From assembly GCA_963712305.1 (NCBI GenBank), contig CAVQHI010000001.1, forward strand, positions 1,077,383-1,141,382: DNA of 64,000 nt. The letters run 5' to 3'. The DNA is from an uncultured bacterium. Lineage in GTDB: Bacteria > Bacteroidota > Rhodothermia > Balneolales > DATFMH01. A program made the position numbers and the translations under genes. The notes under the pieces are model-generated. The model did no database searches and was not told the DNA's origin. It worked only from the letters and a program-made list of their open reading frames with translations. How positions within the stretch are numbered: the stretch's first letter is position 1; every line of letters starts with the position of its first letter. This document shows, in pieces, positions 5,062 to 8,701 of this stretch.

Positions 5062-6483
5062 ATGGCTGACATTAAGTTTGGCACCGACGGCTGGCGTGCT
5101 GTCATCGCAAAAGATTACACATATGACAATCTGAGTATCGTTACGCAAGCAACAGCACGTTGGATCCGCAAGGATAATGTGACCAATAATGGTGTCATCA
5201 TCGGATACGACGGTCGTTTTGGCGGACGCGATTTTGCTCAACACGTCGCTTCAGTTTTCGCAGCAATGGATATTTCCGTAAGGATGGCTGATCAAATCAC
5301 TCCTACTCCGGCAATTAGCTGGGCAGCACTCGAACATGACGCTGTGGGTATCGTAATCACGGCAAGCCATAATCCACCGAATTATAATGGTTTCAAGATC
5401 AAAGCGCCGTTCGGCGGCCCTGCCACTCCCGATCAGATTGATTCAGTAGAACAAGAGTACGATAATTTTGATGACAGCCTTCAGGTTGAGTCATATGACA
5501 CCTACATGAGACGAGGTGTGGTTCGTGAGATTCCGCTTCGTTCACAGTACATGGATGTCATCCGTAAACGCATCGATCTGGATGCAATTAAAAGTAAAGG
5601 TGTGAAGATTGCGCATGATGCCATGTTCGGTGCCGGTCAGCACATCATAAAGGAACTTATAGGAGATCAGGTACATGAGCTGAGATCAGAATTCAACCCT
5701 GGTTTTCACGGACAGGCTCCGGAACCGATCGAGAAGAACCTGCAAAATCTATCCAAGTATATTACGGATAACAGAATGGCCATTGGTATCGCCAACGACG
5801 GTGACGCTGACCGTGTCGGGCTGTTTGATGAAACCGGCGCTTTTGTCAATTCCCACATCGTACTGGCATTGCTCACCAAGTACATGAGCCAGGACAAGAA
5901 GGAGAAAGGCAGCATCATAAAAACTTTTTCGACTACAGACTTGCTCGACAAACAAGCCGAAAAATACGGACTGGATCTTCAGATAACGCCTATTGGCTTT
6001 AAATACATAGCAGAGAAAATCGTAAATGGCGACGTCCTTGTAGGCGGTGAGGAATCAGGCGGGCTTGCTGTTAAGGGACACATCCCTGAACGTGACGGGA
6101 TCTTCATCGGCCTGCTCATCACCGAGATGATGGTCAAGAAAGGAAAAGCTCTGAGTGAGTTAGTTCAGGAACTGTTTGATGAATTTGGAACCCACTTCCA
6201 ATACCGCGACGACCTTCATACTTCCGACGATAAGAAAAACGCCATGATGAAATGGTGCAAAGACGAAAAAGTCGACGAAATAGCAGGTAAAAAAGTAACC
6301 AAACGAGGTTTCACCGATGGCGTAAAACACTGGCTTGAGGATGGATCATGGCTGCTCGTACGCCCATCCGGAACAGAACCGGTACTGCGCATCTACTCAG
6401 AAAGCGACAATGAAGCAGAAGCGAAGAAACTGGTGGATGCTACCACGGATCTTGTAAACGATCCGAAGATATTGAAGGGGTGA
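5062..6483 (+). CDS. phosphoglucomutase/phosphomannomutase family protein
   Basis: Active-site loop TASHNPPNYNGFK, the metal-binding DGDADR motif and GEESGG. Confidence 0.9.
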   Translation: MADIKFGTDGWRAVIAKDYTYDNLSIVTQATARWIRKDNVTNNGVIIGYDGRFGGRDFAQHVASVFAAMDISVRMADQITPTPAISWAALEHDAVGIVITASHNPPNYNGFKIKAPFGGPATPDQIDSVEQEYDNFDDSLQVESYDTYMRRGVVREIPLRSQYMDVIRKRIDLDAIKSKGVKIAHDAMFGAGQHIIKELIGDQVHELRSEFNPGFHGQAPEPIEKNLQNLSKYITDNRMAIGIANDGDADRVGLFDETGAFVNSHIVLALLTKYMSQDKKEKGSIIKTFSTTDLLDKQAEKYGLDLQITPIGFKYIAEKIVNGDVLVGGEESGGLAVKGHIPERDGIFIGLLITEMMVKKGKALSELVQELFDEFGTHFQYRDDLHTSDDKKNAMMKWCKDEKVDEIAGKKVTKRGFTDGVKHWLEDGSWLLVRPSGTEPVLRIYSESDNEAEAKKLVDATTDLVNDPKILKG

Positions 6484-6565
6484 CGTACGGGTGAACCCCT
6501 GTGTTCACCCAACCCTAGAATTCGTCCCCAGCCCTGATACCCGCCGGGGCGGTCACGGGGAACTG
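6484..6565 (+). repeat. composite REP-like repeat, left copy (hairpin GGGTGAA-N8-TTCACCC plus a conserved 39-nt tail)
   Basis: About 80 nt, roughly 85% identical by eye to 7192-7274 and in the same orientation. It overlaps the 3' end of the RAYT CDS. Confidence 0.8.
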
Positions 6566-7170
6566 CGCCTACGTATCCAATTTCTGGGATTCGATCGAAT
6601 ATAATAACGAATCGAATCCCATTCTTTTTGGCTGTGGATGATGTGCTCATAATAATTGCGATGCCATAATTTACCATCAAATCGAGGCCAGCTTTTATCA
6701 TAGACACCATCAATATATTTCTTGGTCGTCAACGACTTAAATCTCTGCACAACCTCTGACAAGGATAGCTGATCATATTTTCGAGATATATCTTCATTTC
6801 CTTGTTGCCTGGATGATTCGCACTCCGTACGGGCAACCCCCCGTGTTTGCCCCTGTCGTGTATCTTCATCTCCCACCCCTCCCATATCTTTAAGCGGCTC
6901 ATCCCCCAATACAACGATCCCATGAAAATGATCAGGCATAACGACAAATTCATCAATTGAAACTCCAGGATAATAATCTGGAATCTCCATCCATATTCTT
7001 TGGATCATCAATCCGACCTCGCTTAGAAGCATGATTCCACTTTCAATCCGACCAAACAATTTCAACCAATTTCTCACATCAATCGTGACAAAATATGCCC
7101 CCGCTTTTGTATAATCGTACCCATTCAACCGAATCGACCGGCGATGATGTCTACTTGGATCGTAAATCAT
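6553..7170 (-). mobile_element. REP-associated tyrosine transposase (RAYT) / IS200-like Y1 transposase family
   Basis: HUH motif MPDHFHGIVV, catalytic-Tyr region WHRNYYEHII and a C-terminal YIRSNPRNW. The N-terminus (RRSIRLNGYDYTKAGAYFVT) is typical of COG1943 proteins. REP-like hairpins flank the gene. Confidence 0.8.
6825..6853 (+). repeat. REP-like hairpin copy inside the RAYT coding sequence
   Basis: ccgtacGGGCAAccccccgtgtTTGCCCc has the same leader (ccgta[ct]ggg) and the same stem-loop plan as the flanking copies. It sits in the low-complexity insert between the HUH and Tyr motifs. Confidence 0.65.
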
Positions 7171-7191
7171 AATGCGTCTCTCTTTTTTCTT

Positions 7192-7274
7192 CCGTATGGG
7201 CGAATCCCTGTGTTCGCCCTACCCCTGTTGTTCGCCCCAGCCCTGATACCCGCCGGGGCAGTCACGGGGAACTG
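7192..7274 (+). repeat. composite REP-like repeat, right copy
   Basis: ccgtatGGGCGAAtccctgtgTTCGCCC, then a partial half-repeat, then the tail cccagccctgatacccgccggggcagtcacggggaactg. It starts 22 nt upstream of the RAYT start codon. Confidence 0.8.
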
Positions 7275-7385
7275 ACCCTTCATAATATGACCACAAAACC
7301 ACATGCACCTTGCACACCTTTTCACATCCCACCCTGTTAGTTTCCTGTAAAATTCCGGATATTTGTGGCGACCTTTGTAGACCTG

Positions 7386-7413
7386 CCGTATGGGCGAATC
7401 CCCGTATTCGCCC
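7386..7413 (+). repeat. solo REP-like hairpin
   Basis: ccgtatGGGCGAAtccccgtaTTCGCCC, in the same orientation, within the leader of the DegT-family gene. Confidence 0.75.
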
Positions 7414-7456
7414 TGCACAGTGTCTGCTCTTACAGCTTTCAAGTAATTTTTACGAT

Positions 7457-8701
7457 ATGAATGATACATCAACAATTAATGGAGTTCCGTTGCTGGACCT
7501 GAAGGCCCAGTACGAGGGTATCCGCGATGAGGTAAAAGCGGAAATTGAAAAAGTATTGGACAGCCAGTCTTTTGTGCTTGGACCTGCTGTTGATCAGTTT
7601 GAAAATGAGGTTGGCCAATATATCGGCACGCCAAATGCTATAGGTTGTGCATCGGGTTCTGACTCCCTTCTGCTAGCATTGATGGCCATCGATCTGCAAC
7701 CCGGAGATCTGGTTCTCACTTCACCGTACACTTTCTTTGCAACAGGCGGAGCCATAGCCCGGCTGGGTGGCATCCCCGTTTTCACGGATATCAATCCCGA
7801 CGATTATAACCTGAATGCTGACCTGGTTGAACAGTTCCTGACTGGGGACCATCCTCTGTCAAGGCGTTTCAAAGATCACAAAAAACGAATTAAGGCTATT
7901 ATTCCGGTTCATCTGTATGGTCAGTGTGCCGACATGGCACATCTTACTGAAATTGCAGTTCGCCATGATGTAGATCTGATTGAGGATACAGCACAGGCTA
8001 TTGGTTCCAAATTTAAAGGCAGAACGGCGGGAACGATGGGCGACTTCGGCTGCTTCAGTTTCTTTCCAAGTAAAAACCTCGGAGGATATGGAGACGGCGG
8101 ACTCATCTCGACGGATAATTCCGAATATGCCGACAAACTCAGAATCCTGCGCGTCCATGGTTCAAAGCCGAAATATCATCATAAGGTTGTTGGTATTAAC
8201 AGCCGTCTCGATTCTCTTCAGGCCGCTGTACTTAGTGTTAAATTGCGTCACCTCGAAGACTGGCATACGGCCCGTCGTGAAAAAGCAATTAAATATAACC
8301 AACTGTTTGAAGAGGCCGGAATTCGTCTGAATGACCAGGTCCAACGTCCTTCAGATATAAATGATGTTGTTGATTCCAATATTGATAAGCTGTTAACTCC
8401 TGTTGAAGTGTCTGGAAAACCGGAATCAGGTGGCAGACACGTGTATCATCAATATGTCATTCGTACGCTAAGGCGTGATGAGCTCAAGAACGCACTCGAT
8501 TCCGCAGGAATTGGAAACGCCATTTACTACCCCGTACCACTGCATGAGCAGGAATGCTTCACGTACCTGGGTTACCAGGATATCGATTGCCCGAATTCTT
8601 CGGCGGCAGGTAGACAAACGCTTGCACTTCCAATCTATCCTGAACTGACAGATGATCAGCAGGAATATATTGTCGCACATATCGTTAAAGCGCTGAAATA
8701 A
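7457..8701 (+). CDS. DegT/DnrJ/EryC1/StrS family PLP-dependent aminotransferase
   Basis: The conserved N-terminus LLDLKAQY begins just after the ATG at 7457. The PLP-lysine region is FSFFPSKNLGGYGDGG. The upstream part of the 7310 ORF is only translated REP repeats. Confidence 0.85.
   Translation: MNDTSTINGVPLLDLKAQYEGIRDEVKAEIEKVLDSQSFVLGPAVDQFENEVGQYIGTPNAIGCASGSDSLLLALMAIDLQPGDLVLTSPYTFFATGGAIARLGGIPVFTDINPDDYNLNADLVEQFLTGDHPLSRRFKDHKKRIKAIIPVHLYGQCADMAHLTEIAVRHDVDLIEDTAQAIGSKFKGRTAGTMGDFGCFSFFPSKNLGGYGDGGLISTDNSEYADKLRILRVHGSKPKYHHKVVGINSRLDSLQAAVLSVKLRHLEDWHTARREKAIKYNQLFEEAGIRLNDQVQRPSDINDVVDSNIDKLLTPVEVSGKPESGGRHVYHQYVIRTLRRDELKNALDSAGIGNAIYYPVPLHEQECFTYLGYQDIDCPNSSAAGRQTLALPIYPELTDDQQEYIVAHIVKALK

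Follow-up and report, generated by a model that had tools for sequence, protein, structure and literature searches.

The Y1/HUH transposases associated with repetitive extragenic palindromes (REPs), known as RAYTs or TnpA-REP proteins, have been divided into several subclasses. One of these, subclass 2.4 (Quentin, Siguier, Chandler and Fichant 2018, PMC6006769), corresponds to RAYT group 4 of Bertels et al. 2017. Its members have a median length of 194 aa, the key motifs NH[IFV]H, WQ and YIxNNP (Table 1 of PMC6006769) and a variable insert between beta3 and alphaC, and they go together with 'long' REPs showing three G-C pairs at the foot of the stem, as well as with 'double-foot' REPs, in which a 5' GT[AG]G is answered by a C[TC]AC at the 3' side (PMC6006769). 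The presence of in-frame REPs within the tnpA-REP gene itself, between the HUH and Tyr motifs, was described as a striking trait found in this subclass alone (PMC6006769). In group 4, the flanking 16-mers have a median of 14 occurrences, and evolution was found to be slow and congruent (Bertels et al. 2017). A GTAN foot followed by a GGG-stem hairpin is a published type of RAYT substrate (PMC6006769, PMC8266576), and the arrangement of a REP, a linker and an inverted REP (iREP) constitutes the bacterial interspersed mosaic element (BIME) of E. coli (PMC3333891). Here we describe a locus at positions 6484-7413 of a 64-kb stretch of DNA (the whole of it hereafter called the window) from the 5.34-Mb genome of an uncultured Balneolales bacterium (the source genome, G000), which is very probably a REPtron, that is, a single-copy and chromosomally fixed TnpA-REP gene of subclass 2.4 together with its cognate REP hairpins. 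As such, it is a well-preserved but ordinary REPtron, whose layout was already published for this subclass (PMC6006769).

The RAYT gene and its hairpins

A genome-wide search found the RAYT gene in a single copy in the source genome. A preliminary description of the locus had taken its product for a RAYT-type Y1/HUH protein accompanied by REP-like hairpins, and this identification holds: the NCBIfam model REP_Tyr_transpos matches the protein with E=4.4e-15, compared with E=5.3e-4 for the NCBIfam IS200 model, and a homologue search at E<=1e-3 recovered 7,974 sequences, several of them annotated as RayT, with identities typically of 45-50% and the nearest ones in Cyanobacteria, Chloroflexi, Calditrichota and Bacteroidota. 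When the Protein Data Bank (PDB) was searched with the family profile, the TnpA-REP of E. coli (4ER8) ranked first, whereas a single-sequence phmmer search of the same database gave no relevant match. The profile alignment pairs W169, E175, H176, Y190 and N194 of the RAYT with W94, E100, H101, Y115 and N119 of 4ER8. In this regard, the HUH motif of the preliminary description stands, but the stretch NYYEHII, cited there alongside it, belongs to the W-motif region, the catalytic tyrosine being Y190 in YIRSNP according to this alignment and to Table 1 of PMC6006769. A structure predicted with AlphaFold has a mean confidence (pLDDT) of 79, with values above 90 in the core and a predicted disordered linker at residues ~90-135 (pLDDT 41-52). 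The 30 best PDB matches of this model in a fold search are all Y1 HUH transposases, and 4ER8 leads them both in query TM-score (0.49) and in identity (19%); such a search does not separate the RAYT from IS200 transposases, both being Y1 HUH proteins.

A maximum-likelihood tree was built with the RAYT, its family homologues and the IS200 and other Y1 genes of the source genome, without the reference sequences of PMC6006769. In this tree the RAYT groups with the genes of G003 and G002, two genomes of the same genus (98/93), and the three are nested in the RayT family (99/98), far from the IS200 copies of the genome, which sit on a separate long branch, and from eight other Y1-type genes (2.6-like and 2.1-like). 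The phylogeny that the preliminary description had proposed thus falls on the RAYT side and apart from the IS200 TnpAs. The family alignment is composed of a conserved core and a variable block lying between the HUH and the Tyr motifs, and residues ~90-135 of the RAYT fall in this block. Its consensus reads NHxH, WQ and YIxxNP; the RAYT has DHFH, WH and YIRSNP, with the catalytic H, H, Y and N all present. In the variable block, the peptides VGAGPRACP and GQxxGxAPT are frequent, at times in tandem, and they would correspond to REP hairpins in two orientations, a reading obtained for the other family members by back-translation only. Moreover, hairpins with a GT[AG]G foot were found inside the gene at 47 of 79 homologous loci sampled from many phyla. 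Altogether, these comparisons support the assignment of the gene as a RAYT-type Y1/HUH transposase of TnpA-REP subclass 2.4 (group 4 of Bertels), with the caveat of some deviating motifs that are considered below.

The 976-nt interval between the two housekeeping neighbours of the RAYT, a phosphoglucomutase-family gene (PGM) and a DegT-family aminotransferase gene (DegT), is occupied in this order: PGM stop codon, REP-A/linker/iREP-A', the minus-strand RAYT with REP-B, REP-C/linker/iREP-C', REP-D and DegT start codon (Table 1). REP-A directly abuts the PGM stop codon (6481-6483), REP-C lies 22 nt upstream of the RAYT start codon and REP-D 46 nt upstream of the start of DegT. The hairpin pattern CGTAY-GGGYRA-N-TYRCCC matches four sites in the window, all of them on the + strand, with 0 expected in 100 shuffles. 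For the remaining REP searches we used R1, a covariance model trained on the source genome's own REP copies. In total, the stretch 6484-7413 contains six REPs, every one built on a GGG/CCC stem base, and the feet read GTAC or GTAT. The hairpins are best taken with some reserve at the level of single bases, as slight differences in their C-runs might stem from the assembly.

Table 1. Position, strand and make-up of the features at the RAYT locus (window coordinates).
Feature	Position	Strand	Description	Support
RAYT / TnpA-REP gene	6553..7170	minus	205 aa; HUH H81/H83 (H81-F-H83), W-motif W169-H170, catalytic Tyr Y190 with N194 (YIRSNP)	open reading frame
REP-A	6484..6510	+	foot CGTAC, hairpin GGGTGAAC-CCCTGT-GTTCACCC	pattern match; R1 43.4 bits, E=1e-6; folds as 8-bp hairpin
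3' half-site, left doublet linker	6513..6529	+	decayed extra copy of loop and 3' arm, CCCTAGAATTCGTCCCC	read from sequence
iREP-A'	6546..6573	minus	decayed inverted REP, CGTAG-GCGCAGTT-CCCCGT-GACCGCCCC	R1 24.1 bits, E=0.056
REP-B	6826..6852	+	in-frame intragenic hairpin; exactly 9 codons, G107-T115, GQTRGVART	pattern match; R1 44.0 bits
REP-C	7193..7219	+	CGTAT-GGGCGAAT-CCCTGT-GTTCGCCC	pattern match; R1 41.7 bits; folds as hairpin
3' half-site, right	7222..7238	+	CCCCTGTTGTTCGCCCC; repeats loop and 3' arm of REP-C	
iREP-C'	7255..7283	minus	inverted REP with decayed foot, GGTCAGTT-CCCCGT-GACTGCCC	R1 36.4 bits, E=5e-5
REP-D	7387..7413	+	solo hairpin, CGTAT-GGGCGAAT-CCCCGT-ATTCGCCC	pattern match; R1 39.7 bits; fold z = -3.2
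Left composite repeat	6484..6575	+	REP-A, linker, iREP-A'; BIME-like doublet; 92 nt	80% identity to right copy
Right composite repeat	7193..7284	+	REP-C, linker, iREP-C'; BIME-like doublet; 92 nt	

The preliminary description had the coordinates and sequences of the two direct composite repeats and of the solo hairpin right, including the identity of 38 of 39 nt between the tails of the composites (6527-6565 and 7236-7274), which have no other occurrence in the genome. It also held that all copies share one orientation, unlike the inverted REP doublets (REPINs) associated with RAYTs. This was wrong, as both tails contain inverted hairpins (iREP-A' and iREP-C') that are perfect at the equivalent positions in sister genomes, and the composites are therefore REP-linker-iREP doublets. 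With each composite being an inverted doublet, the supposed oddity falls, and the layout is the published signature of subclass 2.4 (PMC6006769). Perfect orthologues of iREP-A' (GTAGGGGCAATC-CCCCGT-GATTGCCCCTAC) lie over the RAYT stop codon in G003 and G002, where GTAG-GGGCAAT(C/T)-CCCYGT-GAYTGCCC-CTAC covers the 3' end of the gene, and the G002 equivalent of iREP-C', upstream of its RAYT, is a perfect GTAG-GGGCAGTT-CCCTGT-GACTGCCCC. Judged from these sequences, the inverted second half of each composite is decayed in the source genome, iREP-A' being an inverted repeat 70-71% complementary to the other REPs. Folding of the whole composites gave no greater stability than that of shuffled sequences (z = -0.6 and -1.7); no long hairpin of the REPIN type is formed, and the halves fold separately.

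A close view of the 3' end of the gene shows that the loop of iREP-A' contains the stop codon TGA of the RAYT (6553-6555) and that this hairpin codes for its last ~6 codons. The claim that the left repeat supplies the end of the reading frame stands for the stop codon, but not for the ~13 codons then counted, since about 7 (IRRRSSP) are found up to position 6575, or 4 up to 6565. The stop codon lies within a REP loop in all three species (G000, G003 and G002). Similarly, of the hairpins listed at that time the three sites given are right, but the fourth + strand hairpin, REP-B, was left out; it sits between the HUH and Tyr motifs of the RAYT, and in G003 the same position encodes GQTRGYART. 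A compensated REP-A (GGGCGAAC...GTTCGCCC) occurs at the equivalent position in G003, and so does a compensated orthologue of REP-D (GGGTGAAT...GTTCACCC). At stem position 4, the T-A pair of REP-A in the source genome is a C-G pair in G003, and the reverse is true for REP-D. Such compensated changes between orthologous flanking REPs argue for selection acting on the hairpin as such.

The REP family in the genome and among relatives

At E<1e-3, R1 finds 36 sites in the source genome, of which five belong to the RAYT locus and the other 31 are scattered over the two large contigs, so that the motif, for which the preliminary description had suggested a genome-wide count, is present well beyond the locus. 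The dispersed REPs derive from a master sequence (C)GTAG-GGGTAATC-CCCCGT-GATTACCC-CTAC. Their feet are mostly GTAG, roughly half also carry the complementary CTAC as a second foot, at least 14 share an identical 22-nt core, and nearly all lie outside long open frames. No inverted partner was detected near any dispersed REP in the source genome, even at E<1, and they are thus singletons and not REPINs. Their distribution with respect to replication shows no significant strand bias (20 on the leading strand by GC skew and 11 on the lagging strand; binomial estimate p about 0.15). Between the REPs of the locus and the GGGTAATC master, the likeness is limited to the foot, the GGG/CCC base and the CCCYGT loop.

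A second characteristic of the family is the accumulation of half-sites on one side of the hairpins. In 16 of the 36 REPs of the source genome, at least one extra copy of the REP's own 3' arm follows within 76 nt downstream (e.g. GATTACCC-cta-CCCCGTGATTACC). Extra copies of the 3' arm number 28 downstream and 5 upstream, compared with 4 and 2, respectively, for the 5' arm. In G003, five tandem decayed copies of 'loop plus 3' arm' follow REP-A (L002, 2215-2300). No description of this polarity of 3' half-site arrays was found in the RAYT/REP literature compared.

The link between gene and hairpins was followed in 41 genomes, namely the source genome and 40 relatives, with a cut-off of E<=1e-4. 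Hits of R1 were found in only three of them, with 33 in the source genome, 20 in G003 and 11 in G002, which are the genomes with a RAYT at the common PGM-RAYT-DegT site. G001, of the same genus, has neither a RAYT at its PGM-DegT locus nor REPs. This co-occurrence in genome sequences is consistent with a cognate REP-RAYT pair, short of proof. Identity to the RAYT of the source genome amounts to 63% (BLASTP) or 66% (homologue search) for G003 and to 43% (BLASTP) or 47% (homologue search) for G002. The frame is intact in the three species with dN/dS (ratio of nonsynonymous to synonymous divergence) of 0.14-0.40, dS being saturated in the comparisons that involve the source genome; the RAYT gene is maintained. 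Its dN is 5-30 times that of the neighbouring genes. In the window stretch compared (5062-8701), the identity of PGM amounts to 96.5% for G003/G002, 93.0% for G000/G003 and 92.4% for G000/G002, with 92.9%, 85.7% and 84.4% for DegT in the same pairs. The RAYT tree conflicts with that of the neighbours: judged by the latter, no two of the three genomes are closer than G002 and G003, yet the RAYT of G002 is the most divergent one. This suggests either allele replacement or a faster rate of change in the central part of the G002 protein.

The master variants GGGTAATC, GGGCAATC and GGATAATC are present in the three species, between which the DNA identity of genes is ~80%. When three of the dispersed REP sites of the source genome were compared with G003 and G002, it emerged that C1:415644 is shared with G003, that the region of C2:70958 has a REP in all three species and that C1:1248683 is specific to the source genome. 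No clean empty site was recovered at these three sites, because the intergenic DNA is too diverged at ~80% identity of the genes and other repeats are present. The REP family gives the impression of age and slow movement, not of recent activity.

Other repeats and Y1 genes are found in the source genome. A minor class of double-foot hairpins, GTAG-GGG(C/T)GATTCGCGAATC(G/A)CCC-CTAC, has six copies (C1:250086, C1:965630, C2:1393761, C2:1532088, C2:1729624 and C4:13237). This hairpin is the in-frame REP of the G002 RAYT (GRGDSRIAPT) and does not occur within the RAYT of the source genome. Additionally, there is an intergenic repeat family of ~344 nt, in tandem at C1:329646/329992 (C1:329646-330405, 92.5% identity) and with ~20 partial copies elsewhere. 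Some of its copies bear a REP; it has no long open reading frame, and its TGTCATCC...GGATC-type inverted motifs are reminiscent of a miniature inverted-repeat transposable element, while an Rfam search of the copies bearing REPs returned no match. Regarding the replicons, R1 finds 0 REPs on contigs C3, C4 and C5 (0.88 Mb in total), with about 5 expected by length, and these contigs could represent replicons of their own or DNA acquired recently. The GC skew of C1 and of C2 is monotonic, as would be seen if each contig corresponded to one replichore of the same chromosome. The eight further Y1 HUH genes not belonging to IS200 (C1:1168546, C2:1343192, C1:1649575, C1:666274, C1:2090132, C4:267774, C1:2132943 and C5:56684) comprise five of the subclass 2.6 type (NHVH, WQ, YIH[DQN]NP, ~182 aa) and three 2.1-like or unassigned ones, and about nine IS200 copies or fragments are also held by the genome. 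Any of these could be considered as the partner of the GGGTAATC REPs, a candidate explanation that was rejected, as none of the genes lies near an R1 hit.

Competing explanations and a possible mechanism

By homology with the TnpA-REP proteins of E. coli, S. maltophilia and Marinomonas, the HUH enzyme would act as a dimer that binds the hairpin in its folded form, together with its 5' GTAN foot, in single-stranded DNA and in a strand-specific manner. Y190 would then cleave near the hairpin, with the metal held by H81, H83 and N194 (PMC3333891, PMC8266576), and strand transfer might copy or rearrange REPs in trans, with the RAYT gene itself staying in place. Such copying in trans would explain the 31 dispersed and mostly extragenic double-foot REPs. 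A further and rather improbable proposal is that the RAYT reads its own gene as a substrate, resulting in autoregulation or in self-limiting cleavage, a thought prompted by the conservation in three species of the placement of the hairpins (upstream of the start codon, in the in-frame linker and with the stop codon in a loop); separately, the one-sided half-site arrays might be the footprints of strand transfer. If true, these arrays would provide a sequence read-out of REP multiplication in subclass 2.4.

Several observations do not fit comfortably with a cognate and working REPtron. The RAYT scores on NCBIfam and on Pfam Y1_Tnp lie under the curated cut-offs, which is attributable to the long insert that splits the domain. 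Its motifs depart from the consensus of subclass 2.4 at three non-catalytic positions, shared in part by the same-genus orthologues, and two residues by which the E. coli protein touches GTAG, Q95 and R104, are both replaced by His. The stems of REP-A, REP-C and REP-D (GGGYGAAY) are absent among the dispersed copies in each of the three species. The co-occurrence of REPs and RAYT is seen in one clade and therefore counts as a single evolutionary event, and the REP model used in this comparison was built from copies of the source genome. Moreover, the low copy number, the shared masters and the sharing of two of the three inspected sites across species leave recent REP mobility unsupported.

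Part of these data could come from a relic or domesticated locus, where the RAYT would be kept for a host function or by inertia and would no longer multiply REPs, with the dispersed hairpins as fossils useful to the host through mRNA stability or DNA structuring. In favour of it, we find the small number of dispersed REPs (just 31), master sequences that are identical in three species despite ~80% DNA identity in genes, REPs at orthologous intergenic sites, iREPs decaying at the locus, His at both GTAG-contact positions and a RAYT with a dN well above that of its neighbours. However, the catalytic residues are intact and the frame has been kept in three species with dN/dS <1; at least 14 dispersed copies retain the identical 22-nt core, whereas neutral DNA would drift at such divergence; at least one REP site (C1:1248683) is specific to the source genome, and the polar half-site arrays suggest ongoing local rearrangement. 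All in all, a relic appears rather unlikely.

The position of the hairpins admits other interpretations. REP-A abuts the PGM stop codon and REP-D is just upstream of DegT, as might be expected of host regulatory elements (terminators, attenuators or protein-binding sites) with no functional tie to the RAYT, and REPs elsewhere influence mRNA stability and termination (PMC3733652). Yet a scan of the locus for promoters and terminators gave nothing above shuffles, no hairpin has a T-tract, one hairpin lies inside the RAYT frame and another over its stop codon in the three species, the family is confined to the RAYT-carrying genomes (3 of 41), and a GTAN foot with a GGG stem is the substrate design published for RAYTs (PMC6006769, PMC8266576), all of which makes a mere host element highly improbable. 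As for an autonomous insertion sequence (IS) of the IS200/IS605 type, REP-A and REP-C would be its left and right subterminal hairpins, since the end hairpins of IS608 and ISDra2 also lie on one strand and these two REPs bracket the RAYT in the same way, and the fold search does not distinguish the RAYT from IS200 transposases. This possibility is effectively refuted by the single copy of the RAYT at the same chromosomal site in three species, by the lack of tnpB, by a Tyr motif of YIxxNP and not Y---Q, and by the true IS200 elements of the genome, which encode multi-copy proteins of 145-151 aa scoring 135-140 bits with Pfam Y1_Tnp (17-23 for the RAYT) and occupy their own long branch in the tree.

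Comparison with described systems

The locus offers a resolved REPtron of subclass 2.4 that can be compared over three species. In this comparison, the positions of the hairpins, the pairing of their stems (with compensated changes) and the location of the stop codon within the loop of a REP are kept, and the stem sequence, the integrity of the iREPs and the middle region of the protein drift. It may be of use in studies of REP recognition by RAYTs, leaving the general picture of such systems unchanged.

The closest likeness is with subclass 2.4 itself, of which the locus shares a protein of ~200 aa that lacks a C-terminal tail domain and has its variable insert between HUH and Tyr, the three G-C pairs at the stem foot, the GTAG...CTAC double-foot REPs, the flanking REPs within 1 kb, the in-frame intragenic REP, the low REP copy number and a patchy distribution over phyla. 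It differs in the motifs DHFH, WH and YIRSNP (NH[IFV]H, WQ and YIxNNP in the subclass), in that the REPs beside the RAYT belong to a stem subtype unseen among the dispersed copies, and in a RAYT that evolves much faster than its neighbours with an incongruent tree, whereas Bertels et al. reported slow and congruent evolution for group 4. With the REPtron of E. coli (tnpA-REP/yafM and BIMEs; Ton-Hoang 2012, PMC3333891; 4ER8), the locus has in common a single-copy gene at a fixed site, flanks formed by REP-linker-iREP doublets, a 5' foot of the GTAG type, the absence of transposition as a unit, aligned catalytic HUH, Tyr and Asn residues and dispersed cognate REPs. The E. coli protein, on the other hand, belongs to subclass 2.2, with a C-terminal tail that is missing here and without an intragenic REP, and its REPs are bulged imperfect palindromes in about 600 copies, in contrast to the perfect 8-bp stems and about 36 copies of the source genome.

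The REPIN-RAYT systems of Pseudomonas (Bertels and Rainey 2011, PMC3116915) also combine a single-copy RAYT with cognate, vertically inherited short palindromic repeats, but REPINs are inverted REP pairs that form one long hairpin and reach hundreds of copies, whereas inverted doublets occur here at the RAYT locus only and their halves are mutually non-complementary. Finally, elements of the IS200/IS605 family such as IS608 and ISDra2 share with the locus the Y1 HUH fold, and their enzymes recognise subterminal hairpins in single-stranded DNA with a guide tetranucleotide 5' of the hairpin; these elements are multi-copy, with a TnpA of ~150 aa, distinct left and right ends, a Y---Q motif and often a tnpB, in contrast to the single-copy and fixed RAYT described here, with its 205 aa and its YIxxNP motif.

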